DNA of 32,000 nt from Aciduliprofundum boonei T469 (GCF_000025665.1 NC_013926.1:930001-962000); one strand, 5' to 3'. Positions 6,860 to 21,507 are shown, numbered from the stretch's first letter. Translations and numbers: made by a program. Notes: generated by a model not told the origin, from the sequence alone.

Positions 6860-6896
6860 GAATCATCGGGGTTCATCTTCCGTTAATGGAGGCTTT

Positions 6897-7301
6897 ATGA
6901 TGAAATACACAATAAAGGAGGATCCTCATAAAAACGAGTTGGTTCAGAAAGTTATGGAAATAAGCGGTGAAAACATTTTCTCCTGCTATCAGTGCGGTCG
7001 GTGTTCATCTGGCTGTCCAATGGCCGAGTTTATGGATGTCTTGCCCAACCAAGTTTTTATGTTCCTGCAGGAAGGGGATGTAGATACCCTATTGAATGCA
7101 AAGACGCCTTGGATCTGTGCTGCCTGTTTTACCTGCACAGTTCGCTGCCCTGTTGGCTTAGATTTGGCGGCTGTGATGGAAGCGATTCGCGAGTTGCAGC
7201 TTAGAAAGAATTACGATTATGTAGATCCATACAAAGTTGAGGATCGTGAAGAATTGCCACCAATCGCTCTGGTGAGTAATTTCAGAAAATTCACGCCTTG
7301 A
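6897..7301 (+). CDS. hdrC: Heterodisulfide reductase subunit C-like (2x[4Fe-4S] helical ferredoxin)
   Basis: 134 aa with CYQCGRCSSGCP and CAACFTCTVRCP motifs, positioned directly before hdrB. Confidence 0.85.
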   Translation: MMKYTIKEDPHKNELVQKVMEISGENIFSCYQCGRCSSGCPMAEFMDVLPNQVFMFLQEGDVDTLLNAKTPWICAACFTCTVRCPVGLDLAAVMEAIRELQLRKNYDYVDPYKVEDREELPPIALVSNFRKFTP

Positions 7302-7310
7302 GGTGAAAGA

Positions 7311-8201
7311 ATGGGAAAGAAAATTATGTTTTATCCGGGATGTACATTAAAGGGAGTGGCAAAGAATTTGGAAGATAGCACTGTTGAAAGTGCAAGAGTT
7401 CTTGGATACGATTTCATAGAACTCCCTGGGTGGACTTGCTGTGGCGCTGTGTATGGACTTGCACAGGATAGTGTTAAATTCACAATTGCCAATGTTCGCA
7501 ATCTTATAAAGGCTCAGAATTATGGGAAAGAGATAGACGATAATCGCTTGGTTGCTGTTTGCTCAATGTGTTACAACAATTTGAGGAGAGCGCACATAGA
7601 TGTGATGAAAAATCGAGATAAGTTAGAAACTCTTGATCTTTTTATGGATGAGGAAGCCAATTATGAAGGAAACATAAATGTTCTCCATTATCTTCAATTT
7701 TTGAAGGATGATGTGGGCTTTGATAAAATTGCAGAGAAGGTTAAAAAGCCGCTGAAGGGCTTGAAGGTTGCACCTTATTATGGATGCTTACTCCTTCGTC
7801 CAGAAGAGATAGCCATAGATGACAGGGAGGATCCTCATATTTTGGAGGATCTCTTGAAAATATTGGGTGCGGAGGTTGTGGATTATCCTCTCAAGAATGA
7901 ATGCTGTGGCTCTTACCATACAGTAGACAAAAAGGAAATTGTTAGTGAGAGAACATATAAGTTGGTAAGTGTTGCGAAGGAGATGGGTGCAGATGTTATA
8001 GCAACCTCCTGCCCATTGTGCTTCTTCAATCTTGATAAGAGGCAGGAGATCGCTAAGAATAAGCATAATGACTTTGAGTATATGCCAATTGTTTATTTCA
8101 CCCAGCTAATGGCCATAGCCTTTGGCTTGACATCGCAGGATGTGCTTCATTTTGATAAACATTATATATCCCCTGAGGAGGTGCTTAAGAAATGGCTATG
8201 A
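7311..8201 (+). CDS. hdrB: Heterodisulfide reductase subunit B-like (two CCG domains)
   Basis: 296 aa. It has two CCG motifs (WTCCGAVYG and NECCGSYH) with flanking Cys (YPGCTLK, YYGCLL, SCPLCFFN). Confidence 0.9.
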   Translation: MGKKIMFYPGCTLKGVAKNLEDSTVESARVLGYDFIELPGWTCCGAVYGLAQDSVKFTIANVRNLIKAQNYGKEIDDNRLVAVCSMCYNNLRRAHIDVMKNRDKLETLDLFMDEEANYEGNINVLHYLQFLKDDVGFDKIAEKVKKPLKGLKVAPYYGCLLLRPEEIAIDDREDPHILEDLLKILGAEVVDYPLKNECCGSYHTVDKKEIVSERTYKLVSVAKEMGADVIATSCPLCFFNLDKRQEIAKNKHNDFEYMPIVYFTQLMAIAFGLTSQDVLHFDKHYISPEEVLKKWL

Positions 8202-11200
8202 AAAGAATTGGTGTATTTATATGCCACTGCGGTCGCAACATTGCGGGTACTGTAGATGTTAAGCGCGTTGCTGAGGAGATAGGAAAAAGAGAGGATGTTG
8301 CTTTTTCAACAACTTATGTTTTTATGTGCTCTCAACCTGGTCAGAAACTCATTGAAGATTCGATTAAGAAATACAATTTAGATGGTGTTGTTGTTGCAAA
8401 CTGTTCTCCCACTTTGCACGAAAGAACAATGCGCAATGCAGCTGCCAGAGCTGGGTTAAATCCCTATCGTGTGGAGATTGCAAATATTAGAGAGTGGGCT
8501 GCTTGGCCTCATGAGGATAATCCTGAAGCTGCTACTCGCAAGGCGATAAGAATTATTAATGCAACTATAGAGAAGTTGAAAGCCAACGCATCTCTGCATC
8601 CCCTTGAGGTTCCTGTTAAGAAGAGGGCCCTAGTCATCGGTGGAGGAGTTGCTGGAATGCAGGCAGCCCTTGATTTGGCGGATGCAGGAATTGAAACCGT
8701 TGTGGTTGAGAGAGAGCCATCTCTCGGGGGAAATATGATAAGATTGAGTGAAACCTTCCCGACCTTGGATTGTCCCCAGTGTATTCTCACGCCTAAGATG
8801 AATGATGTTGGAGGACATCCAAATATCAAGCTTTACACTTATAGTGAAGTTGAAGAGATAGAGGGCTATCTGGGCAATTTCAAGGTAAAGATAAAGAGAA
8901 AATCGCCTTTTATTGACTGGGATAAGTGTACAGGTTGCGGTGAGTGTGCAAAGGTGTGTCCAACAGTTTTGCCTAGCGATTTTGATTTGAAAATGGCTAC
9001 TCGTAAAGCTACCCACATACCCTTTGATCAGGCTGTACCTTTCAAATACACAATTACATACAATGGTGTTCCACCCTGTAATGCTGCTTGCCCCCTGCAT
9101 CTTGATGCCCAGGGTTATGTAGCCGCTGCCAAGGCTGGAAGATTTGACCGCTCAATAGATGTTGTTTGGGAAAAACTTCCATTTGCTGGCATAGCCGGTA
9201 GAATTTGTACACATCCTTGTGAAAGTGCCTGCTCTCGCGGTGATATAGATAAACCAGTTGGTATAAGAGAAATAAAGAGATTCGTTGCAGATTGGGCGGT
9301 GAAGAATAAGAGAAAGTACATTCTCCATGTGAAGGAGGAGAAGGATAAGAGTGTGGCTGTTATAGGTGCAGGTGCTGCGGGTCTTATGGCTGCACATGAC
9401 TTGAGAGAGATGGGCTATAAAGTTACCGTTTACGATAAATTGCCCGTGGTTGGTGGTATGCTTGCAGTTGGAATCCCGCCATATCGCTTACCTCAGGAGG
9501 TTATAGATTACGAGGTTCAGCCATTAATTGATGCGGGTGTGGAATTCGTATTAAATTACGAAGTTAACGAGAAGAATTTTGAAGAGATAAGAAAGAAGCA
9601 TGATGCCGTTATAATAGCTATAGGTACTCATAAAGAGAGACACCTTGGCATTCCCGGCGAGGAGAAAGCAATGCATGCGTTAGAACTTTTGAGAAAGGTA
9701 AATCTGGGAGAGGAAGTTGATCTCAAAGGTAAGAAAGTTGTGGTTATTGGAGGAGGCAATAGCGCCGTTGATGCTTCTCGCACTGCTTTGAGGCTTGGTG
9801 CTGATGTTACCATAGCATATAGGAGAACTCGCACAGAGATGCCTGCCATACCTGAGGAGATTGTGGATGCTGAGGAAGAGGGCGTGAAGTTCAAGTTCCT
9901 CGTATCGCCAGCTGAAATTTTGGATGGCAAGATAAAACTTGAAAAGATGAAGCTCGGAGAGAAAGATGCCAGTGGAAGAAGAAAGCCCATTCCCACGGGT
10001 GAGTATGAGTTGATGGATGCTGATGTAGTTGTACTTGCAGTTGGTGAACTTCCAGATGCTTCTTGGGCGGAGAAGTTGGGTATTGAAGTTGATAGGAATA
10101 GGATAAAGACCAATAAATTTATGCAAACATCTATAGAGAATGTATTTGCTGCAGGAGATGCTGTAACAGGAGCTTGGGACTGGGTACATGCAGCCGCTTA
10201 CGGTAGATGGGCAGCGAAGAATGTGGCACATTATCTTGAAGGAGAGGATATGGAAGAAGTTAAAATTGAAATGTCCTCCAGTTTGAAAGGATATAGGGAG
10301 TTGGCTTATCCTGCTCCAAGGCATGAGACAAAGAAGCTTGATATGGAGGAAAGAAAGAGCACATTTAAAGAATTCAATCTTGGATATGCAGATGAGGATG
10401 TTGTAGATGAGGCAAAGCGCTGTCTTGGGTGCGGTGGTTGTGCCAAGTGTGGTCTATGCGTAGAAGTTTGCGAAGCAAAGGCAATTGATTTACATATGCA
10501 AGATTGGTATGTTGAGGAGGAAGTTGGAGCAATAATAGTTGCCACTGGCTACGAGGTTATGCCTGCAGAGGCGTTTCCAGAACTTGGTGGGAAGTATCCA
10601 GATGTTATAACTTCTCTGCAGTTTGAAAGATTATTGGCTCCATCAGGGCCTACTGAGGGAATTCCCAGGAGGCCATCCGATGGGAAGATTCCAAAGAGCA
10701 TCGCGTTGGTGCACTGTGTTGGTTCAAGAGATCCCCAGAATGGCGTGCCCTATTGCTCAAGGATATGCTGTATGTACACCATAAAGCAGGGTATGCTGGT
10801 TAAGCATGCTATGCCCGATGTGGCAGTTTATGATTTCTACATTGACATTCGCTCTAATGGAAAGGGCTATGAGGAATTCTATCATCGTGCCAAGGAAGAG
10901 TACGGGGTGAATTTCATTCGTGGCAAAGTTTCCAAGGTGTACAAGGTTGGAGATAAGTACAGGGTACAGGGGGTTGATACCCTTACCGGAAGGATAATAG
11001 AAGTTGATGTTGATATGGTTATTCTTGCAACAGCTGCAAAAGGCTCATCAGGAGTGAAAGAGTTAGCAAAGAAATTGCGTATTCCTTACGATGAATGGGG
11101 CTGGTTAAAAGAGACTCATCTCAAACTCAAGCCATTGGAGACTCCAGTGGGCGGTGTATTCATAGCCGGTGCTGCCCAGTTTATAAAGGATATTACAGAT

Positions 11201-11509
11201 AGCGTGTCTCAGGGAAGTGGTGCAGCCGCCAAGGCTATGGCTCTCCTTTCCAAGCCTGAATTGGAGAAGGAGCCACTATTGGCAAGGGTGGATACTGAGA
11301 TATGTGCCGGCTGCGGTCGCTGTAAAGATCAGTGCGCCTATGGCGCGATAACTATAGATCCTGTGAGGCATGTTGCTATGGTAAATGAAGCACTGTGCGA
11401 AGGATGTGGTGCTTGCAGCGCAAACTGCCCAACCACTGCAATTCAAGTTGTGAATTTCAAGAAGGGTCAAGTTATTCGCGCTGTGGATGTGCTTGCGGAG
11501 GTGTTCTAA
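8192..11509 (+). CDS. hdrA: HdrA-like flavoprotein with a nested GltD/NfnB-like NAD(P)H-oxidoreductase module ('HdrL-like')
   Basis: 1105 aa. The HdrA N-domain (IGVFICHCGRNIAG, ANCSP) and FAD motif (ALVIGGGVAGMQAALDLA) are present, and the first half of the inserted ferredoxin is CTGCGECAKVCP. Residues about 288-690 carry GltD/NfnB motifs: PPCNAACP...GRICTHPCESAC, VAVIGAGAAGLMAAHDL, GKKVVVIGGGNSAVDASRTA and VFAAGD. The protein then resumes HdrA (CLGCGGCAKCGLCVEVC, ATGYE, VGGVFIAGAAQ) and ends with a C-terminal 2x[4Fe-4S] ferredoxin. An alternative start at 8198 gives an ATGA overlap with hdrB. Confidence 0.88.
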   Translation: MAMKRIGVFICHCGRNIAGTVDVKRVAEEIGKREDVAFSTTYVFMCSQPGQKLIEDSIKKYNLDGVVVANCSPTLHERTMRNAAARAGLNPYRVEIANIREWAAWPHEDNPEAATRKAIRIINATIEKLKANASLHPLEVPVKKRALVIGGGVAGMQAALDLADAGIETVVVEREPSLGGNMIRLSETFPTLDCPQCILTPKMNDVGGHPNIKLYTYSEVEEIEGYLGNFKVKIKRKSPFIDWDKCTGCGECAKVCPTVLPSDFDLKMATRKATHIPFDQAVPFKYTITYNGVPPCNAACPLHLDAQGYVAAAKAGRFDRSIDVVWEKLPFAGIAGRICTHPCESACSRGDIDKPVGIREIKRFVADWAVKNKRKYILHVKEEKDKSVAVIGAGAAGLMAAHDLREMGYKVTVYDKLPVVGGMLAVGIPPYRLPQEVIDYEVQPLIDAGVEFVLNYEVNEKNFEEIRKKHDAVIIAIGTHKERHLGIPGEEKAMHALELLRKVNLGEEVDLKGKKVVVIGGGNSAVDASRTALRLGADVTIAYRRTRTEMPAIPEEIVDAEEEGVKFKFLVSPAEILDGKIKLEKMKLGEKDASGRRKPIPTGEYELMDADVVVLAVGELPDASWAEKLGIEVDRNRIKTNKFMQTSIENVFAAGDAVTGAWDWVHAAAYGRWAAKNVAHYLEGEDMEEVKIEMSSSLKGYRELAYPAPRHETKKLDMEERKSTFKEFNLGYADEDVVDEAKRCLGCGGCAKCGLCVEVCEAKAIDLHMQDWYVEEEVGAIIVATGYEVMPAEAFPELGGKYPDVITSLQFERLLAPSGPTEGIPRRPSDGKIPKSIALVHCVGSRDPQNGVPYCSRICCMYTIKQGMLVKHAMPDVAVYDFYIDIRSNGKGYEEFYHRAKEEYGVNFIRGKVSKVYKVGDKYRVQGVDTLTGRIIEVDVDMVILATAAKGSSGVKELAKKLRIPYDEWGWLKETHLKLKPLETPVGGVFIAGAAQFIKDITDSVSQGSGAAAKAMALLSKPELEKEPLLARVDTEICAGCGRCKDQCAYGAITIDPVRHVAMVNEALCEGCGACSANCPTTAIQVVNFKKGQVIRAVDVLAEVF

Positions 11510-14056
11510 ATGGGAAAGGTACTCATATATGGACTCAGCCTTGCATCTTATCGTGCTGCTGCCAATTTCGCTCGGGCAGGGCACAAAGTAATATTGCTAA
11601 ATCGTGGAGAGTTTATATGGCACAAATTTACCCAGATGCAGTGGCAGAATCCCCGTGACATAATAAATGGATATTCTAAAGGCATCTTGCTTAATGTTGC
11701 AAATATGACAGGAAATATAGAGGTTTATCATAACTCTGAGTTACTGGGGGTGGAAGGAGGCCCTGGAAATTTTAAGGCGAGATTTAAGCACAGGCCACAG
11801 AGTGTAAATGAGTTCAAATGTATAGGTTGTGATTTATGCCATGAGAAATGTGATGTCAAGTTCATTCCTATGCCCCTTGGTCCAGGAATGAGAATAATCA
11901 AGAATGCAGAAGAGTGTTTGGATGTGTGTCCAGTAAAAGCCATTCAAATTCCTAAAGAAGAAGAGAAAGAGGAGAAAGTGGATGCTGTTATACTCTCTCC
12001 AGAATACGAGCCTGAGGATATAAAGAAATATGTTGGGGATAAGAAGTTCACCATGCCTTTCAGAGATTTTGCCTTCATGTTCAGGGGTAAGGGTGTAGAA
12101 AAGCAGTTCTTGAAGAGAGAAGACGGCAAAACTCCAGAATCTCTTGGATTTTTCATACCCGCAGGATTTGAAGGATACCTCGGCTCTTATGAGGAGCATG
12201 TGATAGTATTCCGAGAGGCATTGAACATGAAGGAGATGGACCCAAGTTTGGATGTTCACATATTCATGAAAGAAGTCCGTCTTTACGGCCATAATCAGAT
12301 GGCTTTATACGATAAAGCGATAGAAAAGGGAATAAATGTGCATATTATAGATGAATTGAACATAGAGGAGAAGGACGATTATCTTGTGGTGAATGATGTT
12401 AATATAGATTTGCTCGTTGTTATGCCTGGTCAAAAGATACCTGAGGATTGGAAGAATCTTGCTCAGAATCTTGGTTTAGAGACAGAGCATGGATTTGCAG
12501 TTACTAAGCCATTCACATTTGAAACCACGAAAGATGGAATATTTGCCATTGGTGAGTTTGTGAAGCCCGTTGGTAGTGCCGAAGCCATATACCAAGGCAC
12601 AGCAATAGTGCCTCAGGCAGAGAAGTATCTCAAACCGCCAGAGGAGCCACCGAAGAGAGAAGAAGTTGAATGGCTCCGTGATGATTTCAATCCAAAGGTT
12701 GGAGTGTTCATGTGCAGGTGCGCTCTTGGAAATCTAAATCCAAAAGTGGATGCAGATTATGTCATAGAAAAAGATTATCTTTGCTTGCATCCAGAGGATA
12801 TTGTAAAAGAAATAAAAGAGAAGGGCATAAATCGTGTTGTGTTTGCTGCATGTAGCCCTGCTTTGAGAGGTGCTATGTTAGAAATGGTTGCTTCTCAGGC
12901 AGGTATTCATCCCTCGTATGTAGAGCTTGTACAACTCAGGGAATATGTATCTAGGGTTGGAGGAGATGATAGAAAAGCAAGTGCAATGATCAATGGCGCA
13001 GTGGCTAAATCTAAAGCAAGTTATTTTGTGGATATACCAACGAGTGCCGTAACCAAGGGAGTTGCCATAATAGGAGGAGGACTTGCATCTCTAATTGCGG
13101 CAGATTATCTAGCTGAGAAAGTTCCTCTCGTTTATATCATAACTAAAGAGTTTGATACACCTCATAATGCTACGGGTGTGAAGGGTAATGTTCTCCATAT
13201 AAGCGATGATGAGTTGAACTCTTGGTACAATTCTCTTAAAGATAGGGTTCTTAAGAGAGCCAAGTGGATAAAGGAGGATGTAGAGAGTATTGATGGATAC
13301 CTCGGCAATTTCGTACTTAAGGCGGGAGAGGAAGAAATAAAGGCAGGAGTGCTAATAATAGCCACAGGTGGAGATGTTGTAGAAGGAGGAGAGCATATAA
13401 CCTCCCGTATGGAAGGGAATACCCTCCACTCATCTCTTGCCTCTCTTTATGCAAAGAGGAAAGGTGTCTCCGGAACATATGATTTAATGAAATCCTACTC
13501 CTTGCTTGATGTTGAGCCCCCAGAGGCAAAGCGTGGTGAGGGAGAGCCGATAGCATATGTGAAACCAAGGGAGATTAACAAGAAGATTGCAGAGATGCTG
13601 GGCATGAGGATAGATAAGGAGGGATTCTTGTTCTTTGCTGAAGAGCCCAGGGAATGGGTTGAGCGTGTTGGCATACAGTTTACACTTCTTGAAGATGCCT
13701 TTGGAGGAATTTTTGTAGCTGGACTTGCCCATAGGCCAATGAGCATTGAGGAAGAGGTTGAAGAGGCAGGTTTTGCAGCTCAAAGCGCTATTTATTTAAT
13801 GAATGATAGGCCATCTCCAGCAGGAAAGTTTGTAAGCGTGACGAATCCCAGGAGATGCGCTGGATGTGGAATATGCGTAGATGCCTGTTTTGCAGGCGCA
13901 AGGTATATTGATGAGGAGGATCATATTGCCAAGGTCAGAACCGAGCTTTGCGTGGGCTGTGCTGCATGTGCAAATGCATGCCCAAGCGGGGCTGCGGTTG
14001 TCATGCCGTATAATCCAAATGGAGTGTTTAAAATGTTAAAGGAGGTAGTAAAATGA
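11510..14056 (+). CDS. Tandem, partly degenerate HdrA-like protein (two HdrA cores in one chain)
   Basis: 848 aa. Residues 1 to about 375 parallel the HdrA core (GNIEVYHNSELLGVEGGPGNFKARFK...CIGCDLCHEKC versus PNIKLYTYSEVEEIEGYLGNFKVKIK...CTGCGECAKVC), but the dinucleotide motif is degenerate (IYGLSLASY). Residues from about 395 onward carry an HdrA N-domain-like segment (VGVFMCRCALGNL, FAACSP), an intact GVAIIGGGLASLIAADYL, and a C-terminal CAGCGICVDAC...CVGCAACANACP. Confidence 0.75.
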   Translation: MGKVLIYGLSLASYRAAANFARAGHKVILLNRGEFIWHKFTQMQWQNPRDIINGYSKGILLNVANMTGNIEVYHNSELLGVEGGPGNFKARFKHRPQSVNEFKCIGCDLCHEKCDVKFIPMPLGPGMRIIKNAEECLDVCPVKAIQIPKEEEKEEKVDAVILSPEYEPEDIKKYVGDKKFTMPFRDFAFMFRGKGVEKQFLKREDGKTPESLGFFIPAGFEGYLGSYEEHVIVFREALNMKEMDPSLDVHIFMKEVRLYGHNQMALYDKAIEKGINVHIIDELNIEEKDDYLVVNDVNIDLLVVMPGQKIPEDWKNLAQNLGLETEHGFAVTKPFTFETTKDGIFAIGEFVKPVGSAEAIYQGTAIVPQAEKYLKPPEEPPKREEVEWLRDDFNPKVGVFMCRCALGNLNPKVDADYVIEKDYLCLHPEDIVKEIKEKGINRVVFAACSPALRGAMLEMVASQAGIHPSYVELVQLREYVSRVGGDDRKASAMINGAVAKSKASYFVDIPTSAVTKGVAIIGGGLASLIAADYLAEKVPLVYIITKEFDTPHNATGVKGNVLHISDDELNSWYNSLKDRVLKRAKWIKEDVESIDGYLGNFVLKAGEEEIKAGVLIIATGGDVVEGGEHITSRMEGNTLHSSLASLYAKRKGVSGTYDLMKSYSLLDVEPPEAKRGEGEPIAYVKPREINKKIAEMLGMRIDKEGFLFFAEEPREWVERVGIQFTLLEDAFGGIFVAGLAHRPMSIEEEVEEAGFAAQSAIYLMNDRPSPAGKFVSVTNPRRCAGCGICVDACFAGARYIDEEDHIAKVRTELCVGCAACANACPSGAAVVMPYNPNGVFKMLKEVVK

Positions 14057-14499
14057 GTGAAGAAAAATTTGAACCAGTGATTGTAGGATTCTTCTGTAAC
14101 TGGTGTACATCCGCAGCTGCGGATCTAGCAGGTACTTCTAGATTGCATTATCCAGCGAATATAAGACCAATAAGGGTGATGTGCTCCTCGACCGTTGACC
14201 CTGTGTATCTGGTGAGGGCTTTACAGGAGGGTGCTGATGCCACTATACTCGGTGGTTGCCATCCTGGAGATTGCCACTACATAACTGGTAATTACAAAGC
14301 AAGGAGGAGAGTTGCAATAGTGAAAACCGTTCTAAAATCTCTGGGATTTGATGATACAAGGGTTCTTCTAGAGTGGATATCTGGAAGCGAGGGTCCCAAG
14401 TTTGCGAGGGTTATGAATGAATACACAGATTATATAAAGAAGAGGGGCCCCTCGGACTTCAAGTACCTTGATTCTCTTGGAGGTGAAGAAATTGAATGA
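14053..14499 (+). CDS. mvhD: MvhD-like protein (methyl-viologen-reducing hydrogenase delta subunit family, [2Fe-2S])
   Basis: 148 aa with VGFFCNWCTSAAADLAG, IRVMCSS and GGCHPGDCHY motifs. It has an ATGA overlap with the preceding gene. Confidence 0.9.
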   Translation: MSEEKFEPVIVGFFCNWCTSAAADLAGTSRLHYPANIRPIRVMCSSTVDPVYLVRALQEGADATILGGCHPGDCHYITGNYKARRRVAIVKTVLKSLGFDDTRVLLEWISGSEGPKFARVMNEYTDYIKKRGPSDFKYLDSLGGEEIE

Positions 14500-14506
14500 G
14501 AATGAA

Positions 14507-15559
14507 ATGCTTAAAAAATTCATAAAGGACGCTTTTGATAAGGGTCTAATTGAAGCTGTTATGGCTCCTTCTGCCACAAAAGATTCGTACAGTTATGCTT
14601 TAATAACCAAGAAGGAAGATGTTGATAAATTAACGCCCATAGCTCCTGTAATGCAGTGGAGTGGGGCTGATATGATTCGCAGAATTACAAGATTGAAGAA
14701 ATCTGAGAGGAAATTGCTTGCAATTTTAAGACCTTGTGAGTCTAGAACCTATAAGGAACTCGTTAAGTTCAATCAGATAAATCCTGAGAACATAATAGTT
14801 TTGACTTATGATTGCCCTGGCACCGTTCATGCTAGAAATTTCAAGTATGAGCCCATGACTTCAGAAAAGCTTATTGAAGAGATGAAGAATGGAAATATAA
14901 GTAGCAAGATTCGCGAGTCTTGTAAAGTTTGCGAGTATCCTACACCAATTAAAGGAGTTGGAGACATAGGATTGGGTATTGTGAATACCGATGAACCTGT
15001 GTTTTTCTCTCTCAGTGAGAACGGCAAGGAGTTCTTGGCAAATATGGGCATACAGGAGGGAGAGAGGGATGATACTCAGTGGGTCAAGATACACAGGGAG
15101 AACAGGGAGAAATGGTTAAAAGAGGAGCGCATTACAGGAGGTCGCAAAGGTTTAGAAGATTTCTTATCTTCTTGCTTGAATTGTCATAACTGCAAAGATA
15201 TGTGTCCAATATGCTTCTGTAAAGAATGTTTCTTCGAGGATCACAGCGTTTTCGATTATGAATCAAATAAGTTTTACAACTGGGCCGATGATAAGGATGG
15301 TATAAGACTGCCCACGGATAAATCTCTCTTCCACATTGGAAGGTTAATACACATGGGTACATCCTGCGTTGGTTGTGGTCTTTGTCAGCAGGCATGTCCT
15401 ATGGATATTCCATTATACAGGCTATTTGGAATAGTTGGCAATGATCTCCAGAAAGTGTTTAACTATAAACCTGGCGTTAATGATGATCTTCCTCCAGTTA
15501 TGGAATTCCGTGAGGATGAATTGCATGAGTTTGAAGGCCTCTTTGGGGGTGAGGAGTAA
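14507..15559 (+). CDS. Fe-S oxidoreductase subunit, AsrA / sulfhydrogenase-beta (HydB) / FrhB-like
   Basis: About 350 aa with CLNCHNCKDMCPICFCKEC and CVGCGLCQQACPMDIP motifs, the pattern seen in AsrA/HydB-type proteins. The start is uncertain: ATG 14507, or TTG 14492 six nt after GGAGGTG. The track start at 14468 overlaps mvhD. Confidence 0.65.
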   Translation: MLKKFIKDAFDKGLIEAVMAPSATKDSYSYALITKKEDVDKLTPIAPVMQWSGADMIRRITRLKKSERKLLAILRPCESRTYKELVKFNQINPENIIVLTYDCPGTVHARNFKYEPMTSEKLIEEMKNGNISSKIRESCKVCEYPTPIKGVGDIGLGIVNTDEPVFFSLSENGKEFLANMGIQEGERDDTQWVKIHRENREKWLKEERITGGRKGLEDFLSSCLNCHNCKDMCPICFCKECFFEDHSVFDYESNKFYNWADDKDGIRLPTDKSLFHIGRLIHMGTSCVGCGLCQQACPMDIPLYRLFGIVGNDLQKVFNYKPGVNDDLPPVMEFREDELHEFEGLFGGEE

Positions 15560-16380
15560 TGGGTAAGAAGGTTGAGATATTGGATGTGGATAGCAAGCAA
15601 ATAATGGATGATATAAGGAAAGCGGCCTCACCACCTGAGGAAGTGGAACACTGGGTTACTATATATGTTATGGGAAAACCGTATAGGGTTCCTGCAGGTT
15701 TGACTATAATGAAGGCCTTAGAATATGCAGGTTATCGCTTTATTAGAAGTTCTGGATGTCGTGCTGGATTCTGCGGTGCCTGCGCAACAGTTTATAGGAA
15801 AAAGGGAGAGTATAGGTTTAGAACTGCCTTGGCTTGTCAGACTACAGTAGAAGACGAGATGTACCTTGCTCAGATTCCTTTTGTGCCTGCAAACAAGGCG
15901 AAATATAATATAGATGAGATTGAACCAGGACCAACTACACTCTTGGAATATTATCCTGAAATTGCTCGCTGTGTATCCTGCAACACATGTACCAAGGCCT
16001 GCCCCCAAGAGCTGGATGTTATGTACTATATCCAGTATGGTATCCGTGGCGATATTGCCAAGGTTGCTGAGCTGAGCTTTGACTGTATTCAGTGTGGTTT
16101 GTGTACATTGAGATGTCCTGCCGAGATTCAGCACTATCATATGGCCCAGCTAGCAAGGAGATTATACGGCAAGTACTATCAGCCTAAGAGTCCATGGCTA
16201 AAGAGAAGGCTCAAGGAGATCGATAGTGGAATGTATGAGAAAGCTTATGAGAATATCAAGAAGTTGAGGGAAGATCCAGAGGCAATTAAGGCCCTGTATT
16301 ACAAGATTCTCAACGAAGGAAGGGAGAGGGAAGAGAAGTTGATTGAAGATCCCTTGGATTTTATTAAAGGAGAGGATTAA
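15559..16380 (+). CDS. SdhB/FrdB-like iron-sulfur protein (plant-type [2Fe-2S] plus 2x[4Fe-4S] helical ferredoxin)
   Basis: 273 aa with the [2Fe-2S] motif GCRAGFCGACATV...ACQ, followed by CVSCNTCTKACP and CIQCGLCTLRCP. It shares one nt (TAATG) with the upstream gene. Confidence 0.7.
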   Translation: MGKKVEILDVDSKQIMDDIRKAASPPEEVEHWVTIYVMGKPYRVPAGLTIMKALEYAGYRFIRSSGCRAGFCGACATVYRKKGEYRFRTALACQTTVEDEMYLAQIPFVPANKAKYNIDEIEPGPTTLLEYYPEIARCVSCNTCTKACPQELDVMYYIQYGIRGDIAKVAELSFDCIQCGLCTLRCPAEIQHYHMAQLARRLYGKYYQPKSPWLKRRLKEIDSGMYEKAYENIKKLREDPEAIKALYYKILNEGREREEKLIEDPLDFIKGED

Positions 16381-16381
16381 A

Positions 16382-18079
16382 ATGACCCTGAAGCTTATTA
16401 GAGGATACCCTGAATATATGCGTGAAAGTATTGAAATGGTTGAGAAAACTAGAGATCAAAGGATAAAGGAAAAGGAGAAGGAGAAGGAACTAGCACTCTC
16501 TGCAGAGGAAAGAAGAGAGGTTCTAAACAAGTTTCACCCAGATTACGCCCCCGGTGGAAAGAGGGAGCTGAAGGTAGGTGTAAATAAAGGAGAGATAGTG
16601 CCCAATGAAGTTGCAGACATTCTTGAGGCATGGCCTGCTTTAGATCCAGATGAGGTTGATTTGAACGATATCGATTATGATGTTGATATCCTTATAATAG
16701 GTGGTGGCGGCGCTGGAACTGTAGCTGCTCTCTGGGCTAACAACGAAGGGATATCTGCTGAAAACATACTTATAGCAACGAAGTTGAGGCATGGTGATGC
16801 CAATTCAATGATGGCTCAGGGTGGTATACAGGCTGCGGATAGGCCTTGGGATTCGCCCATTATTCATTACCTTGATGTTCTCGGCGGAGGTCACTTTGCT
16901 AACAAGCATGAGCTGGTTAAGGCGCTTACGGAAGATGCTCCAAAGATAATAAAATGGCATGAAGACTTAGGAGTGATGTATGATAAGGATGAGAAAGGTA
17001 ACTTCATTGAGCGCTGGGGTGGCGGAACCTCAAGAAAGAGATTACACTCTGCTAAAGATTATACAGGAATGGAGATTATGCGTGTTATAAGAGATGAAGC
17101 GAGAAACAGGGAAATACCAGTTTTAGAATTCAGTCCTGCTGTTGAGTTAATAACAACGGAAGATGGAGAGATTGGAGGAGCTATACTTTGGAATATGGAA
17201 ACCAAGGAGTACTATGTTGTGAGGGCTAAAGCAACGGTCCTAGCTACAGGTGGCTGGGGTAGATTGCATATCAGGGGATTCCCAACCACTAACCACTATG
17301 GCGCTACAGCGGATGGCTTGGTTATGGCCTATCGCGCTGGGGCGAGATTGAGAGATTTGGAATCTGTACAGTACCATCCTACCGGAGCTGCCTATCCTGA
17401 GCAGATTGTAGGATTGCTCATAACTGAAAAGGTTAGGGCCATGGGTGCTACCCCCGTGAATAAATACGGCGAAAGATTTGTATTCCCACTAGAGCCCAGA
17501 GATGTAGAGGCAGCAATGTTCATTAGAGAATGCTTTGGCAAAGGTAACTGCGTGCAAACTCCTACTGGAATGCGCGGAATATGGCTTGACTCGCCTATGA
17601 TTGAAGAATTGCAAGGAGAAGGGGCTATAAGAAAGAATTTAGATGCTATGTACCGTATGTACAAGAGATTCGGAATAGATATGACTAAGGATCCAATATT
17701 GGTGTTCCCAACTCTGCACTATCAGAACGGAGGAGTTGAAATCAACGCGGATGCTCAGGTCCTTAAGGGCGATGGTACGCCATATCCAAGATTCTTTGCA
17801 GGTGGAGAAGTTGAGGGTGGAGTGCATGGAAAGAACCGCCTTATGGGTAATTCGCTCTTGGATTACAATGTGTTTGGTAGGAGAGCAGGAATCTCTGCTG
17901 CAAAGGTTGCTCGTAACTCTGGTAAGCCTGGAAAGCTGAGTTTGAGGCATGTGAAGATATACTCGGAAGAAGTAAAGAAGATAAACGTGCCATTGTCGAG
18001 AAGGTCTCCTATCCTTCTTCCCGATTATAGGGGAAAGAGAGTGTTGGCCAGGAAGATAGATCTTCCTGTATTACAATGA
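16382..18079 (+). CDS. Fumarate reductase / succinate dehydrogenase-family flavoprotein (soluble TfrA-like), with an N-terminal extension of about 100 aa
   Basis: Start set at ATG 16382, just after the upstream stop and a GGAGAGG SD. Motifs present are ILIIGGGGAG, QYHPTG, ITEKVRAMG (catalytic Arg), HYQNGGVEI and GGEVEGGVHGKNRLMGNSLLD. Asn sits at the position of the covalent-FAD His (ANSMMAQGG). Confidence 0.85.
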   Translation: MTLKLIRGYPEYMRESIEMVEKTRDQRIKEKEKEKELALSAEERREVLNKFHPDYAPGGKRELKVGVNKGEIVPNEVADILEAWPALDPDEVDLNDIDYDVDILIIGGGGAGTVAALWANNEGISAENILIATKLRHGDANSMMAQGGIQAADRPWDSPIIHYLDVLGGGHFANKHELVKALTEDAPKIIKWHEDLGVMYDKDEKGNFIERWGGGTSRKRLHSAKDYTGMEIMRVIRDEARNREIPVLEFSPAVELITTEDGEIGGAILWNMETKEYYVVRAKATVLATGGWGRLHIRGFPTTNHYGATADGLVMAYRAGARLRDLESVQYHPTGAAYPEQIVGLLITEKVRAMGATPVNKYGERFVFPLEPRDVEAAMFIRECFGKGNCVQTPTGMRGIWLDSPMIEELQGEGAIRKNLDAMYRMYKRFGIDMTKDPILVFPTLHYQNGGVEINADAQVLKGDGTPYPRFFAGGEVEGGVHGKNRLMGNSLLDYNVFGRRAGISAAKVARNSGKPGKLSLRHVKIYSEEVKKINVPLSRRSPILLPDYRGKRVLARKIDLPVLQ

Positions 18080-18089
18080 GGTGCTTAGA

Positions 18090-18863
18090 ATGAGAATAAT
18101 GTTACATGGTTGGGATACCTCCCATAGATTGGGCGTACCTGAAATCTGCGATTCAATGACCTCAATAGTCAAGAAGATGGGGCATGAGTATGTCCCCAAT
18201 GAAAGTAAGGTTATCTGCGCAGAAGCTATAGGTTTTTTGGGCTATGATAACCTAACTGATGATTTTGCAAAAGCAACAGTCAAAGAGATTGAAGAGAAGG
18301 TAAGCAAATATGACATAGACATGATTCTCACTGCTTATGCAGCACCATATGCTGCATGGAGCAAAGAGCGTGAGGGTTTCCTCGTTAAAAGGGGCTATGA
18401 ACTTCCAGTGCCAATTGAGCATATTGCCACCTTCTTATATAAGAATCTGGATAAGTTAAAATTCAAAGAGCTTGATATGGCAGTGCTAATGCATGATGGA
18501 TGCACTCTAGGGCGCAAGATGCGTGTTGCTGAGGAGCCAAGGAAGGTACTTGAGAAGATTCCCAAGTTGAAGTATGTGAATTTTGACCATCCTGAGTTGT
18601 ATGTGAAAGAGAGAGAGCTTAAGCCATGGGATATATCCGCTTGTCCCGGTGGCTGGTTAGATTTTACCCTGCCAGAATTAATGCCCTATGTAGCTAGCAA
18701 TGTCATTCGGGAGTACGCTTTGCCGAGAGAAGTGGATGTCATTGTTACCACCTGTGGAAATGGATACCATGCCTTCAAAGCGGGAATAAAGCATGGGGAA
18801 TTTGACATCAAAGCTATGGCTTATCCAATGCTCATAGATATGGCTCTGGAGGGGGTGCAGTAA
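18090..18863 (+). CDS. Degenerate CCG-domain protein (LutA/HdrB/GlpC-like)
   Basis: By-eye alignment to LutA/YkgE: HDGCTLGRKMRVAEEPRKVLEKI aligns with HPSCSLARKLGVKDEPLTLLKNV, ACPGGW with TCCGFGG, and TTCGNGYH with VSCLLNISG. The N-terminal CCG repeat has lost its cysteines. ATG 18090 lies 6 nt after GAGGTG; the track start is GTG 18081. Confidence 0.6.
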   Translation: MRIMLHGWDTSHRLGVPEICDSMTSIVKKMGHEYVPNESKVICAEAIGFLGYDNLTDDFAKATVKEIEEKVSKYDIDMILTAYAAPYAAWSKEREGFLVKRGYELPVPIEHIATFLYKNLDKLKFKELDMAVLMHDGCTLGRKMRVAEEPRKVLEKIPKLKYVNFDHPELYVKERELKPWDISACPGGWLDFTLPELMPYVASNVIREYALPREVDVIVTTCGNGYHAFKAGIKHGEFDIKAMAYPMLIDMALEGVQ

Positions 18864-20144
18864 ATGATAGATGATGTGGTTAAAGAATACACAGAAAGGA
18901 TCATTGAGTATGGAGCGAAGAGCGAGAAAGTTCGTATTGCTTTATCCAGAGCAATTAAGGCTTTTGAGAACAATCGCAGAAATGCCTTGGGTATGTTTCC
19001 TCAAAGTATCGATACTGCTAAAGAAGTACGCAAGATTAAAGAGTACAGTATAGAGCATATGGATGAGTTGATAAAGAAGGCATGTGAGAGTATTGAGAGA
19101 AATCACGGGCATTGCTACTATGCTAAAACTAAGGAAGAGGCGTTGCAGATATTCAAAGATCTTGTTGGCAGTGGAAAATTAATAGTTAAGAGCAAGAGTC
19201 TTACCAGCGAGGAGATTCATCTTCGCGAATTCTTAGAGGAGTTGGGAAACGAAGTTTATGAAACTGATTTAGGTGAGTTCATTGTTCAGCTTATGGGCAC
19301 TAGACCCACTCATATCCTTGCACCTGCTATAAATGTTCCTAGGGAGGATGTAGCTAAAGTGCTTAGTAAGTTTATGAAGGAGAAGGGTATAATAGAAGAA
19401 GATTTAGATGAGCAGGATATACCAAAAATGGTTGAAACTGTGCGTAAGTTTCTGAGAGATAAGTATTTCAAGGCAGATATTGGAATTAATGGGGCGAATG
19501 CCCTAGCTGCAGATACTGGCACGATGTTTATCATTGAAAATGAGGGTAATGCTCGTCTTAGCATAGGTGCTCCTCCCGTTCAAATAGCTATAGTGGGTGT
19601 CGAGAAAATCGTGCCCACCATAGAGGATGCGTTTAAAGTTACGGAAGTTACATGGAGGTATGCCAATTACACAGTACCTGCCTATGTAAACTTAATATCT
19701 GGCCCTAGTAAAACAGGAGATATTGAGAAGGTCATAACTTACGGGGCTCATGGACCTAAAGAGTTGCATGTAATTTTGCTAGATAATGGTCGCACGAAGA
19801 TGCACGAATCTGGATACAATGAAGCATTGTACTGCTTGCGCTGTGGTACCTGCCTCTATGAGTGTCCAATTTATGCCGTAACCGCGGGATTCTTTGGACA
19901 GCAGTACATGGGTGGCATAGGAGCGATATGGGATGCCTTCACAACCGTGGGCTTGGAAAAAGCAAGTCCAATTGCCTATACTTGTGTGCGCTGCGGAAAG
20001 TGCAAGGTAATGTGTCCTCTCAATATTGATATTCCAGATATGATTGCAAAGCTTCGTAACGATGCTCGCAAGCAGGGTTATGTGCCAAAGGTTGTTAGGG
20101 ATTTTGCTAAGGATATTGAAGAGTTTGTAAAGGAGCAAAAGTGA
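18864..20144 (+). CDS. LutB-like protein (LUD/DUF162 domain plus 2x[4Fe-4S])
   Basis: 426 aa. The N-terminal LUD-like region is followed by CLRCGTCLYECPIY and CVRCGKCKVMCPLNIDIP, and the start abuts the upstream stop (TAAATG). No lutC-like gene follows. Confidence 0.78.
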   Translation: MIDDVVKEYTERIIEYGAKSEKVRIALSRAIKAFENNRRNALGMFPQSIDTAKEVRKIKEYSIEHMDELIKKACESIERNHGHCYYAKTKEEALQIFKDLVGSGKLIVKSKSLTSEEIHLREFLEELGNEVYETDLGEFIVQLMGTRPTHILAPAINVPREDVAKVLSKFMKEKGIIEEDLDEQDIPKMVETVRKFLRDKYFKADIGINGANALAADTGTMFIIENEGNARLSIGAPPVQIAIVGVEKIVPTIEDAFKVTEVTWRYANYTVPAYVNLISGPSKTGDIEKVITYGAHGPKELHVILLDNGRTKMHESGYNEALYCLRCGTCLYECPIYAVTAGFFGQQYMGGIGAIWDAFTTVGLEKASPIAYTCVRCGKCKVMCPLNIDIPDMIAKLRNDARKQGYVPKVVRDFAKDIEEFVKEQK

Positions 20145-20191
20145 GGCGGAAAGTATAAGGTTGATTAAAACATGCGAGTATCGGTGATAAA

Positions 20192-21493: not shown

Positions 21494-21507
21494 AGGAGGA
21501 ATGAAAA

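Follow-up and report, generated by a model that had tools for sequence, protein, structure and literature searches.

An Hdr-linked gene cluster with a TfrA-like flavoprotein in Aciduliprofundum boonei T469: a candidate soluble fumarate-reducing system with exchangeable input modules

Many genome papers on uncultured anaerobes report HdrABC-MvhADG complexes and remark that they can name no disulfide substrate, since the synthesis of coenzyme M (CoM) and coenzyme B (CoB) is missing (e.g., in Culexarchaeia). In Endoriftia and Thioflavicoccus, flxABCD-hdrABC genes with interspersed tfrAB and korABCD were proposed to bifurcate the electrons of NADH to fumarate and ferredoxin, with co-expression described for the Hdr-Flx, acl and kor genes and with tfrAB outside the shared differential-expression pattern (Rubin-Blum et al. 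2019; Mitchell et al. 2024). Here, we describe a stretch of 32,000 nucleotides from the archaeon Aciduliprofundum boonei T469 (GCF_000025665.1, NC_013926.1:930001-962000; the window), in which ten forward-strand genes between positions 6897 and 20144, g1 to g10, join Hdr parts to an SdhB-like protein and a flavoprotein related to TfrA.

The initial annotation of this DNA saw in it a candidate bifurcating, fumarate-reducing system and knew of no characterized complex of this composition, a statement that holds within the literature searched. The idea of bifurcation from NADH to fumarate and ferredoxin is, by contrast, not new, because it had been published for Endoriftia and Thioflavicoccus. 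Searches for the phrase "bifurcating fumarate reductase" and related ones gave no match in the literature, and broader searches gave only the Endoriftia proposal and annotations at the level of metagenome-assembled genomes (MAGs). As judged from gene content and order, the window is a local variant of a modular cluster spread over many archaeal and bacterial phyla. A soluble Hdr-type complex with fumarate as exergonic acceptor, NAD(P)H as donor and ferredoxin as product would be its best explanation as a whole, at a likelihood that we place just short of even.

Subunits and cofactor motifs of the ten-gene unit

The ten co-oriented, tightly packed genes of the initial annotation are all present (Table 1), and so are their ATGA, TAATG and TAAATG junctions. 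From g1 to g10 the gaps are +9, -10, 0, -4, about -8, -1, +1, +10 and 0 nucleotides, and a Shine-Dalgarno sequence of the GGAGGT type precedes nearly every start. The likely start codons of g6 (TTG at 14492, or ATG at 14507), g8 (ATG at 16382) and g9 (ATG at 18090) were revised because of Shine-Dalgarno spacing and the gene calls in a 96% identical contig. The products of g1 to g10 are soluble, with no hydrophobic segment in any of them (highest Kyte-Doolittle mean over 19 residues ≤1.66), and domain searches across the whole window detected no hydrogenase (mvhAG), formate dehydrogenase (Fdh) or membrane anchor, as the initial annotation had noted. The gene order is kept in five independent assemblies (L001, L002, L004, L086 and L087) at 69–96% amino acid identity per gene, and the arrangement is therefore not due to chance; the closest genome record, a Thermoplasmata MAG, has the same order at 95% identity. 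Gene packing and conserved order thus uphold one compact unit that joins the Hdr parts to the flavoprotein and the SdhB-like protein.

The flavoprotein g8 scores 306.7 bits against its best curated family, TfrA (NF004900, cut-off 718), compared with 269 bits for SdhA/FrdA and 240 bits for NadB, and it is not a TfrA equivalog. It covers only positions 6–425 of the 546 of the TfrA profile; the SdhA-type C-terminal domain is therefore missing. The dicarboxylate-binding motifs named in the initial annotation (H332-P-T, T348-E-K-V-R352, H446-Y-Q-N-G-G and N485-R486-L) are present and, together with R373, invariant in 16 diverse homologues. In an alignment to solved SdhA, H332, T348, E349, R352, H446 and R486 coincide with the catalytic residues, and R373 (in PRDVEAA), a residue not listed before, is the counterpart of the proton-donor arginine. 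The protein thus has the catalytic residues and the flavin adenine dinucleotide (FAD) fold of the SdhA/FrdA type. It lacks the histidine to which FAD is covalently bound (8-alpha-N3-histidyl FAD), which is replaced by the invariant Asn141 (in DANSMMAQGG). By established work on FrdA/SdhA mutants, loss of this histidine permits fumarate reduction but not succinate oxidation, and Asn141 accordingly favors the former. That g8 probably acts on fumarate is judged from the catalytic residues, from Asn141 and from the genes nearby, which encode fumarase, SucCD, malic enzyme and citrate lyase.

Members of the g8 family are 60–77% identical across the domains of life and keep an N-terminal extension of 100 residues and a short C-terminal tail. 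No record matched the g8 sequence exactly, and a homologue of 96% identity was taken in its place. In a library of 1.84 billion proteins clustered at 50%, the family has one full-length representative (781 bits), and its next relatives score 481 bits or less. Among the ten nearest representatives, nine match TfrA best at sub-threshold scores and the tenth (408 residues) matches NadB only; sister representatives reach 286–350 bits on TfrA. In this placement, which is a labeling of near representatives by hidden Markov models and not an anchored phylogeny, g8 does not group with L-aspartate oxidase, a grouping that would have told against its role in fumarate reduction. L-aspartate oxidase was rejected for g8: TfrA outscores NadB in g8 and in nine of the ten representatives, the SdhB-like partner is obligate, and the gene context does not fit. 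The AlphaFold2 model of g8 is of moderate confidence (pLDDT 74), and its top 50 Foldseek matches are all complex II/fumarate reductases or flavocytochrome c3, a result that does not tell the sub-families apart. The conserved extension (residues 1–100, nucleotides 16382–16680) is helical, with a pLDDT of about 72–93, and stands in place of the missing SdhA C-terminal domain. Sister clades at 39–47% identity share part of it, and one relative of 727 residues (P0242) carries a further N-terminal fusion of 228 residues.

The partner protein g7 has the Cx4CxxC...C motif of a [2Fe-2S] cluster and two full CxxCxxCxxxC motifs for [4Fe-4S] clusters, and no 3Fe motif; its Pfam domains and cysteine pattern bear out the SdhB-like label. 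The single-chain architecture of TfrB, with one [2Fe-2S], two [4Fe-4S] and two CCG units (NF004898, cut-off 385), is not found in the window, where these parts are split over several genes. g7, g9, g10 and g2 score 38, 44, 34 and 33 bits on the TfrB profile, each on a different segment. The match of g7 is to positions 19–83, and g7, g10 and g2/g9 map onto successive segments.

The first four genes make up a complete HdrABC-like set with an extra tandem HdrA, which Pfam and NCBIfam, together with MvhD, confirm. HdrC-like g1 has eight cysteines, arranged as the two CxxCxxCxxxC motifs that HdrC uses for two [4Fe-4S] clusters; its best NCBIfam matches (QmoC, HdrC and TIGR03290) are each under cut-off. 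The HdrB-like g2 scores 170 bits on TIGR03288, below the HdrB cut-off of 345, and is therefore not an HdrB equivalog; its score on the MFR model of SdhE, the CCG partner of SdhAB, is almost as high (159 bits). None of the ten cysteines of HdrB is missing from it (C11, C43-C44, C84, C87; C159, C198-C199, C234, C237) in two complete CX(31-39)CCX(35-36)CXXC motifs, for two non-cubane [4Fe-4S] clusters.

The large HdrA, g3, consists of a canonical core interrupted by a GltD/NfnB-like unit. Residues 4–289 and 749–1099 align to residues 4–289 and 300–650 of solved HdrA (634 bits), and the core contains the N-terminal four-cysteine domain, the TrxR-like FAD domain, and the inserted and C-terminal ferredoxin domains. 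Its score against the HdrA equivalog (774 bits, cut-off 1100) is lowered by the insert and by divergence. Residues 293–750 align to NfnB/GltD structures (NfnB 5jca_L residues 50–473) between HdrA positions 289 and 300, and Pfam finds Fer4_20 and Pyr_redox_2 at 294–668; the unit, Fer4_20 with two Rossmann folds, thus lies within the inserted ferredoxin domain. This is the architecture of the type III class of HdrA, which was defined in methane-metabolizing archaea on nine sequences, none of them linked to a fumarate reductase, and in which the insert lies on what is, in canonical HdrA, the ferredoxin-reducing arm (PMC12054007). The class comprises more than 100 clusters at 40–60% identity, in WOR-3, TA06, Stahlbacteria, Thermoplasmatota, Desulfobacterota and Anaerolineae. 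The nucleotide site of the insert reads GGGNSAVD...AYRRTRTEMPA, and its YRR motif suggests a preference for NADPH.

The second HdrA, g4, resembles the type II form. It begins with a degenerate N-terminal half, followed by an HdrA N-domain, a Rossmann fold and a C-terminal ferredoxin domain. Fused type II HdrAs of 1000–1100 residues from other loci run collinear with it and share about 25% of its residues. It has 18 cysteines and lacks counterparts of C194/C197 and C842–C860 of g3. Among close relatives no other gene of the operon evolves as fast (69–77% identity, against 92–93% for g3, g8 and g10).

The MvhD-type adaptor g5 also matches VhuD and the HdrA2 C-terminus in NCBIfam. The Fe-S protein g6 matches FdhB of solved Hdr-Fdh complexes (9t1s_M, 8e-28 as a single sequence; 9e-56 over the full length with a family profile), the subunit that docks on MvhD there. 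The g6 homologue of sister loci stands before the genes of a Fer4_22 protein and a FAD_binding_6/NAD_binding_1/DHODB_Fe-S protein, in the order FlxD-FlxC-FlxB-FlxA, and g5-g6 therefore correspond to FlxD-FlxC; g6 is 21–35% identical to the gene at the FlxC position in Flx-type loci. The adjacent FlxC-like and FlxD genes of FlxABCD are thus found, and FlxA (FAD/NAD-binding plus [2Fe-2S]) and FlxB (Fer4_22), which follow the g6 homologue in three sister loci (L018, L030 and L047), are absent from the window by Pfam. The AsrA/HydB-like label given to g6 in the initial annotation has to be replaced, in view of the FdhB profile match and the position in Flx loci: in sister loci it is FlxB, with Fer4_22, that is AsrA/HydB-like, and g6 is FlxC/FdhB-like.

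The last pair, g9-g10, resembles a split and permuted LdhH/LutAB. g10 scores 344 bits on LutB (TIGR00273, cut-off 444.8) and 345 bits on LdhH; sequence searches of the PDB gave matches for g10 solely to its HdrC-like Fe-S part and to a hypothetical protein with a LUD domain, and no useful match for g9. The latter aligns to positions 278–416 of TfrB and 482–636 of LdhH, and it has only five cysteines (15, 38, 133, 180 and 217 of the 252-residue translation from nucleotide 18105), with no CC pair and no CxxC. On these grounds a TfrB-like, thiol-oxidizing CCG site was rejected for g9. Neither LutC nor a second LUD protein was found in the window by Pfam, and the pair is not a LutABC/LldEFG system: g10 stays under the LutB cut-off and g9 lacks the CCG cysteine motifs. 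Homologues of g10 at about 60% identity are widespread in Chloroflexota. Among the best 80 loci of the survey described below, the pair is confined to the lineage of the window, and in other genomes similar pairs stand alone, with no Hdr or Frd neighbors. One such module (L084, 9241–11275) lies beside a CitMHS/Na-sulfate-type carboxylate transporter, and another (L085, 6967–9191) is on a Dehalococcoidia contig.

Recurrence of the cluster and exchange of its input module

Loci were collected by a degenerate-pattern scan derived from an alignment of flavoprotein homologues, with one genome per species. At least 600 stretches matched and 599 were confirmed; the counts given here are for the best 80 of these matches, in which all open reading frames were labeled from their BLASTP matches to the proteins of the window and to a number of reference proteins. 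The g8-like family, which is uncurated, occurs in at least 600 species. An SdhB-like gene adjoins the flavoprotein in 75 of the 80 loci, and HdrB, the SdhB-like protein and the flavoprotein are contiguous in 40 of the 64 that have at least 2.5 kb of upstream sequence. Where at least 7 kb is available (n = 49), the loci contain HdrA (40), HdrB (40), MvhD (38), MvhA plus MvhG (23), a g6 homologue (11) and a GltD-type insert (5). Other genes of the context are KorA (37 of the 80), fumarase (15), SucC (9) and malic enzyme (8). The linkage of Hdr to fumarate reductase parts is thus stronger than the sequence available to the initial annotation could reveal. The full ten-gene order was found in the five assemblies named above and the core order far more widely, so that the supposed supercluster is no one-off: its core linkage recurs in dozens of species of many phyla.

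The archaeal sources of the 80 loci are Thermoplasmata, several Asgard lineages, Theionarchaea, Methanofastidiosum, Thermococci, Culexarchaeia, Bathyarchaeia and other Thermoproteota; the bacterial sources are Bipolaricaulota/Acetothermia, WOR-3, Thermotogae, Clostridia, Chloroflexi, Aerophobetes, Stahlbacteria and Spirochaetota. As read from these loci, the constant core is formed by HdrA, HdrC, HdrB, the SdhB-like protein and the TfrA-like flavoprotein, and the electron-input module is swappable. The commonest input module is the MvhD-MvhG-MvhA hydrogenase. In many Asgard, Thermoplasmata, Theionarchaea-related and Bipolaricaulota genomes, an "orphan" MvhADG-HdrABC set is directly followed by the SdhB-like/flavoprotein pair (L003, L005, L010, L012–L014, L016, L021 and others), often flanked by korABG, fumAB and malic enzyme. 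An FlxABCD module is found in Heimdallarchaeota, Clostridia, Chloroflexi and a Korarchaeia-like MAG. Four loci (L019, L020, L033 and L067) have an HdrA-MvhD fusion and no further donor module; this variant, of about 800–845 residues, lies with HdrCB and the SdhB-like/flavoprotein pair beside KorABG, and L020 also encodes a 648-residue protein with four CCG domains. The arrangement of the window, a GltD-inserted HdrA with MvhD and an FlxC-like protein and no FlxAB, is shared by L001, L004, Aerophobetes L009 and WOR-3 L073. GltD-containing proteins of 1025–1036 residues near some WOR-3/Stahlbacteria loci are several kb away and often on the other strand, and were not counted as linked for that reason.

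Several of these genomes have been described. The Culexarchaeia paper treats Hdr-Mvh and "TfrA/Frd" separately, and the Culexarchaeia locus L023 has HdrC-HdrB-SdhB-like-flavoprotein; the WOR-3 MAG paper likewise does not join the two, handling "TfrA/Frd" apart or missing it. No fumarate reductase is annotated in the Acetothermia paper, and the full cluster is present in the Acetothermia loci L010 and L014. The Sifarchaeia paper assumes a CoM/CoB loop.

A sibling vent lineage (L086/L087) has the same operon with an HdrA of 668 residues (10001–12007 in L086) that lacks the GltD/NfnB insert. It is 85% identical to g3 over the aligned residues, compared with 69–93% for the other operon genes, and in the HdrA of the window the insert takes the place of a linker of about 25 residues inside the inserted ferredoxin domain. 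The core of g3 is 60–68% identical to type III HdrAs of other phyla and about 55% identical to type I HdrAs, and the GltD-less forms nest among GltD-bearing close relatives in a comparison of identities, not a tree. These core identities and this nesting make loss the simpler reading, and suggest that the insert was lost in the sibling lineage rather than gained. No hydrogenase, FlxAB, Fdh or pyridine-nucleotide module is present in the sibling operon. As far as gene content tells, its donor must be ferredoxin, something that binds to g6, a partner whose gene lies elsewhere, or a 2-hydroxy acid oxidized through the LutAB-like pair. Two very large secreted cysteine peptidases (families C11 and C25, about 1600 residues each) are encoded just 5' of the asparaginase gene and the Hdr-Frd operon (L086, 1–5940), consistent with a proteolytic lifestyle of this lineage. 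The operon of the window and its GltD-less sibling form a natural domain-swap pair for the third arm of the proposed bifurcation.

Proposed electron path and its alternatives

In the proposed arrangement, the products would assemble into one soluble multi-subunit flavin/iron-sulfur complex of Hdr type, with fumarate rather than a heterodisulfide as the high-potential acceptor. Electrons from the bifurcating FAD of HdrA (g3) would pass through HdrC (g1) to the two non-cubane clusters of HdrB (g2), which would hand them over to the [2Fe-2S] and the two [4Fe-4S] clusters of g7 and thereby to the non-covalent FAD of g8, where fumarate would be reduced to succinate. The energy of fumarate reduction (about +30 mV) would pay for an uphill transfer from the same FAD. 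NAD(P)H would be oxidized at the GltD/NfnB module of g3, as a stand-in for the FlxA/FlxB or MvhA/MvhG of sister clusters, and its electrons relayed by the FlxC-like g6 and MvhD (g5); g4 would form the second protomer of an HdrA heterodimer. The reaction would read 2 NAD(P)H + fumarate + 2 Fd(ox) -> 2 NAD(P)+ + succinate + 2 Fd(red), with ferredoxin (Fd) as low-potential product. The C4 acids would come from the reactions of fumarase, malic enzyme, citrate lyase and asparaginase, and succinate/succinyl-CoA would be handled by SucCD. At potentials of -320 mV for the donor and of +33 and about -450 mV for the acceptors, this reaction is exergonic by roughly 35 kJ.

The modules that are swapped among the loci are all donor modules, either MvhAG or FlxB (Fer4_22) plus FlxA (FAD_binding_6/NAD_binding_1/DHODB_Fe-S), and the recurrence of a GltD-HdrA with FlxC/FlxD and without FlxAB suggests that the GltD unit stands in for FlxAB as a pyridine-nucleotide dehydrogenase. 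Electron transfer from a CCG to an SdhB protein has a precedent, because TfrB fuses SdhB-like and CCG domains; SdhABE is a second one. The frequent KorABG neighbors would fit a link to ferredoxin in either direction. Taken part by part, a fumarate reductase wired to Hdr components is probable, energy-coupled operation by bifurcation is about evenly balanced, and the specific topology with NAD(P)H as donor and ferredoxin as acceptor is put forward tentatively, as the most doubtful element.

Several observations weigh against this scheme. The GltD unit sits in the ferredoxin-reducing arm of HdrA, a position that would allow NAD(P)+ as an acceptor or NAD(P)H in place of ferredoxin. The GltD-less sibling keeps the whole operon with neither insert nor other donor module, so that the scheme must leave room for a donor that is not NAD(P)H. 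Thus the NAD(P)H entry point of the initial annotation stands as a module of g3, and its role as donor is not secure. Moreover, g4 lacks several cluster ligands, and four genes separate HdrCB (g1-g2) from g7-g8 in the window. In methanogens the non-cubane clusters of HdrB are the substrate site, and a pure relay role is only a proposal. The loci were chosen through the flavoprotein, so that the counts do not give a share of all Hdr clusters, and no biochemically characterized member of the family was found in the literature searched.

The position of the GltD unit leaves room for a hydroxy acid as the electron source. In this unlikely alternative, g9-g10 would oxidize lactate or malate and feed HdrA through g6 and MvhD, fumarate would be reduced downhill and GltD would reduce NAD(P)+, seated as it is on the ferredoxin-reducing arm of the canonical enzyme; the GltD-less siblings would reduce ferredoxin instead. 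The pair is translationally coupled to g8 and is kept in every member of the sub-lineage, including the GltD-less sibling that has no other recognizable donor, and the 345 bits of g10 are to the L-lactate dehydrogenase LdhH/LutB models. The potentials fit: lactate and malate lie at about -190 and -170 mV, and the mean of +30 and -320 mV, -145 mV, is above -190 mV. The restriction of g9-g10 to one lineage among the 80 loci speaks against this alternative, as do the occurrence of such pairs alone, away from Hdr and Frd genes, the loss of the cluster-binding cysteines in g9, the missing LutC and the sub-threshold LutB score of g10. We know of no Lut enzyme that docks to MvhD or FlxC.

Similarly unlikely is a soluble fumarate reductase that uses NAD(P)H or reduced ferredoxin without bifurcation, the Hdr parts being an iron-sulfur wire from GltD to the flavoprotein. 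The soluble five-subunit NADH-dependent enzyme of Hydrogenobacter thermophilus (Miura et al. 2008), which is established by biochemistry, is its precedent, and two loci with an HdrA-MvhD fusion, HdrCB and the SdhB-like/flavoprotein pair beside KorABG (L019 and L033) could pass reduced ferredoxin derived from 2-oxoglutarate:ferredoxin oxidoreductase (KOR) to fumarate. However, g3 has the complete core of canonical HdrA and lacks no feature of the flavin site used for bifurcation; MvhD, the FlxC-like protein and the second HdrA are kept, which would be costly for a mere wire; and most sister clusters contain a complete MvhAGD-HdrABC bifurcation set.

The cysteine content of the CCG proteins bears on a thiol/disulfide loop, which we regard as improbable. 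The HdrABC part would reduce some (hetero)disulfide, and the Tfr-like g7 and g8 with the CCG protein would re-oxidize the thiols with fumarate. TfrA is indeed the best-scoring curated family for g8, g2 has an intact set of HdrB active-site cysteines, a cycling of CoM/CoB by TfrAB and Hdr-Mvh was proposed for Sifarchaeia, and a DsrC-like carrier was mentioned for Endoriftia. But two catalytic CCG sites would be needed, and most loci have a single HdrB, directly before the SdhB-like gene; g9, with its five cysteines and no CC pair or CxxC, comes from an independent module that is also found alone. The TfrA/TfrB equivalog cut-offs are missed by wide margins, there is no TfrB-type fusion, and many carriers (e.g., Culexarchaeia) lack CoM/CoB synthesis. 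The closed loop entertained in the initial annotation is therefore weak.

Operation of the bifurcating complex in reverse appears quite improbable. Succinate would be oxidized by confurcation with reduced ferredoxin from KOR, giving NAD(P)H, or H2 in Mvh-type clusters, in a catabolism of glutamate and peptides that runs from succinate through fumarate and malate to pyruvate. The pathway is drawn in that direction for Culexarchaeia; the SucCD, fumarase and malic enzyme neighbors would fit an oxidative route, the sibling operon has genes for asparaginase and for large secreted proteases at its side, and KorABG is linked in 37 of the 80 loci. Against it, all members of the family have asparagine for the covalent-FAD histidine, the exchange that abolishes succinate oxidation in SdhA/FrdA, and the reaction is uphill by about +35 kJ per succinate under standard conditions. 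Finally, it is hardly credible that the flavoprotein is not a fumarate reductase but an L-aspartate oxidase-like enzyme or a reductase of another enoate: NadB models score only 50–70 bits under TfrA, no curated cut-off is passed, the SdhA C-terminal domain is absent and asparaginase lies next door, but 75 of the 80 loci have an SdhB-like partner, which NadB lacks, the dicarboxylate-binding and proton-shuttle residues are all invariant, the Foldseek matches are those given above, and fumarase, SucCD and KOR neighbors recur.

Returning to the bifurcating fumarate-reducing complex, the synteny suggests fumarate as the acceptor for a large subset of non-methanogen Hdr. That fumarate, through a dedicated SdhB-like/TfrA-like pair docked on HdrB/HdrC, is the physiological high-potential acceptor for a large share of the "orphan" non-methanogen HdrABC-MvhADG/Flx/HdrA2 complexes is a possibility to which we assign somewhat less than an even chance. 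If true, the cluster would represent a "bifurcating fumarate reductase" of pan-prokaryotic range that conserves energy without quinones and takes plug-in donor modules, in Asgard archaea, Thermoplasmata, Theionarchaea, Culexarchaeia, Bipolaricaulota, WOR-3, Thermotogae, Chloroflexi and others, and its reduced ferredoxin would feed 2-oxoglutarate synthase or energy-converting hydrogenases. Confirmation would establish a new class of flavin-based electron-bifurcating enzyme, and would explain quinone-free energy conservation from fumarate reduction as well as the ferredoxin supply for 2-oxoglutarate synthesis in incomplete reductive branches of the tricarboxylic acid (TCA) cycle, Asgard archaea included. 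The window adds a fourth input variant, the GltD-inserted HdrA with FlxC/FlxD and no FlxAB; the main value lies in the linkage of Hdr and fumarate reductase across phyla, not in the uniqueness of the window.

Neighboring genes and comparison with described systems

The unit probably extends beyond g10. The gaps from g10 to malic enzyme, sucC and sucD are 47, 14 and -4 nucleotides, the first of them without oligo-T, and the position of malic enzyme is kept in L001, L002, L004 and L086. Because the first same-strand intergenic oligo-T tract appears only after sucD, we infer a transcription unit of about 13 genes, from g1 to sucD (6897–23477), in place of the ten genes ending at 20144 in the initial annotation; the tract is a probable terminator of the archaeal type. 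Correspondingly, the CCG-domain and LutB-like proteins placed at the end of the unit are identified as g9 and g10, but they are not its last genes, and g9 is degenerate. Upstream of g1, a candidate TATA box was read directly from the sequence, and the TBP gene farther upstream identifies the host as archaeal.

Citrate lyase is a contextual source of oxaloacetate, the class I fumarase would provide fumarate, and the presence of citDEF, asparaginase, fumarase and malic enzyme suggests that citrate and Asn/Asp are channeled to C4 acids ending as succinate. Between sucD and trmO/fumarase stands the gene of a 530-residue protein, probably located at the cell surface: it begins with a segment that resembles a signal sequence, contains a linker rich in Gly, Asn and Ser, and closes with a hydrophobic anchor whose last residues are RRRR. 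A low-GC stretch (32–36%) follows the integrase gene toward the end of the window.

Table 1. Features of the window; positions count from its first nucleotide, and aa denotes amino acids
Feature	Position	Strand	Basis or remark
citrate lyase citD, acyl carrier	715-957	+	Pfam ACP (MdcD-type)
citrate lyase citE	954-1802	+	Pfam HpcH_HpaI
citrate lyase citF	1803-3338	+	Pfam CitF, E = 3e-160
TBP gene	3534-4091	-	
tRNA-Gly(GCC) and tRNA-Ser(CGA)	4247-4439	-	adjoin TBP gene
asparaginase	5830-6654	-	
candidate archaeal TATA box CTTTATATT	6853-6861	+	read from sequence; in 242-nucleotide, 73% A+T intergenic region 5' of g1
g1, HdrC-like, 2x[4Fe-4S], 134 aa	6897-7301	+	Pfam Fer4_8/17
g2, HdrB-like CCG protein, 296 aa	7311-8201	+	Pfam CCG x2
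g3, type III HdrA, 1105 aa	8192-11509	+	canonical HdrA core plus GltD/NfnB-like unit
GltD/NfnB-like insert of g3 (about aa 291-752)	9062-10447	+	alignment of g3 with L086 HdrA
g4, divergent second HdrA, type II-like, 848 aa	11510-14056	+	three stretches match solved HdrA
g5, MvhD/FlxD-type [2Fe-2S] adaptor, 148 aa	14053-14499	+	Pfam FlpD, E = 7e-49
g6, FlxC/FdhB-like Fe-S protein, 355 aa from TTG 14492	14492-15559	+	15 conserved Cys
g7, SdhB/TfrB-N-like Fe-S subunit, 273 aa	15559-16380	+	Pfam Fer2_4 and Fer4
g8, TfrA-like fumarate reductase flavoprotein (FAD_binding_2), 565 aa	16382-18079	+	NCBIfam best match TfrA
g9, degenerate CCG-domain (LutA-like) protein, 257 aa	18090-18863	+	weak Pfam CCG match
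g10, LutB/LdhH-N-like, LUD plus 2x[4Fe-4S], 426 aa	18864-20144	+	Pfam LUD_dom, E = 7e-53
NAD(P)-dependent malic enzyme	20192-21493	+	Pfam malic and Malic_M; co-transcription with g10 inferred
succinyl-CoA synthetase beta (sucC)	21508-22614	+	Pfam ATP-grasp_2, Ligase_CoA, CoA_binding (for sucCD)
succinyl-CoA synthetase alpha (sucD)	22611-23477	+	Pfam ATP-grasp_2, Ligase_CoA, CoA_binding (for sucCD)
oligo-T tract, first intergenic one 3' of g1	23478-23505	+	T-run scan
530-aa protein	23529-25121	+	no Pfam match
class I fumarate hydratase alpha	25738-26598	+	Pfam Fumerase, E = 6e-100
class I fumarate hydratase beta	26599-27183	+	Pfam Fumerase_C
MFS transporter	27235-28725	-	downstream of fumarase
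tyrosine-integrase gene	28851-29858	-	downstream of fumarase

Among described systems, the TfrAB of Methanothermobacter shares with the window a soluble make-up, an SdhA/FrdA-type flavoprotein, an SdhB-like protein with one [2Fe-2S] and two [4Fe-4S] clusters, and CCG clusters at the electron entry. It differs in that g8, far below the TfrA cut-off, lacks the C-terminal domain and has the N-terminal extension instead, and in that TfrB is one fused chain whose parts are divided in the window between g7 and HdrB/HdrC. The system of the window is, moreover, tied to HdrA, MvhD and donor modules, and a dependence on CoM/CoB is unlikely in most carriers.

The methanogen MvhAGD-HdrABC complexes, and the HdrABC complexes linked to Fdh or F420, have in common with the window the HdrA core, HdrC, an HdrB with both CCG motifs and MvhD; the Hdr-Fdh complexes also have the FdhB homologue (g6), and sister clusters even carry MvhAG. 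By contrast, the window has neither a hydrogenase nor an Fdh as donor; its HdrA contains the GltD insert and is accompanied by a second, degenerate HdrA, the Hdr equivalog cut-offs are missed, and the SdhB-like/FrdA-like pair is present, with fumarate as the presumed acceptor in place of CoM-S-S-CoB.

Pyridine-nucleotide input, an Hdr core and a fumarate reductase are combined in the proposed Flx-Hdr-TfrAB-KorABCD assembly of Endoriftia as well, and the window has its FlxD (g5) and FlxC-like (g6) proteins. Flx-type versions of the cluster of the window occur in Heimdallarchaeota, Clostridia and Chloroflexi. The Endoriftia/Thioflavicoccus assembly would have a ferredoxin-dependent 2-oxoglutarate enzyme as a further sink, whereas no KOR gene is found in the window; the window also differs in its archaeal host, the extra HdrA, the LutAB-like pair, and the GltD/NfnB unit within HdrA instead of FlxA/FlxB. 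The type III HdrA of methane-metabolizing archaea has the GltD unit between the halves of the inserted ferredoxin domain, as in g3 (PMC12054007); g3 differs from it by its location in a fumarate-reductase operon. Compared with the NfnAB transhydrogenase, the window has the NfnB-like unit but no NfnA/PyrK-like gene for the [2Fe-2S] and FAD-, NAD-binding partner.

A soluble, five-subunit, NADH-dependent fumarate reductase (FrdABCDE) was reportedly purified from Hydrogenobacter thermophilus, where it belongs to the reductive TCA branch, and is said to include GltD-, HdrB- and HdrC-like subunits. Set beside the window by description and not by sequence, it is likewise soluble, multi-subunit and dependent on a pyridine nucleotide; it is described without HdrA, MvhD or FlxC, with scattered genes and with no report of bifurcation. 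The type E succinate:quinone reductase/MFR (SdhABE) also combines SdhAB with a protein of two CCG domains, as reflected by the MFR SdhE score of g2, and in type E SdhB, as in g7, the 3Fe motif is replaced by another [4Fe-4S] motif. In contrast to SdhABE, the window displays no sign of quinone or membrane association, a non-covalent FAD is expected, and the system is tied to HdrA. In LutABC/LldEFG/LdhH, the counterparts of g10 and g9 are LutB/LdhH-N and the LutA/LdhH-C-like CCG protein; the window differs by the absence of LutC, the permuted order, the lost cysteine ligands of g9 and sub-threshold scores of both proteins.

None of g8, g7, g2, g3, g9 and g10 reaches a curated family cut-off, and the system is for this reason not filed as TfrAB, HdrABC, Flx or Lut. 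As far as its genes indicate, it works like a hybrid of all four.

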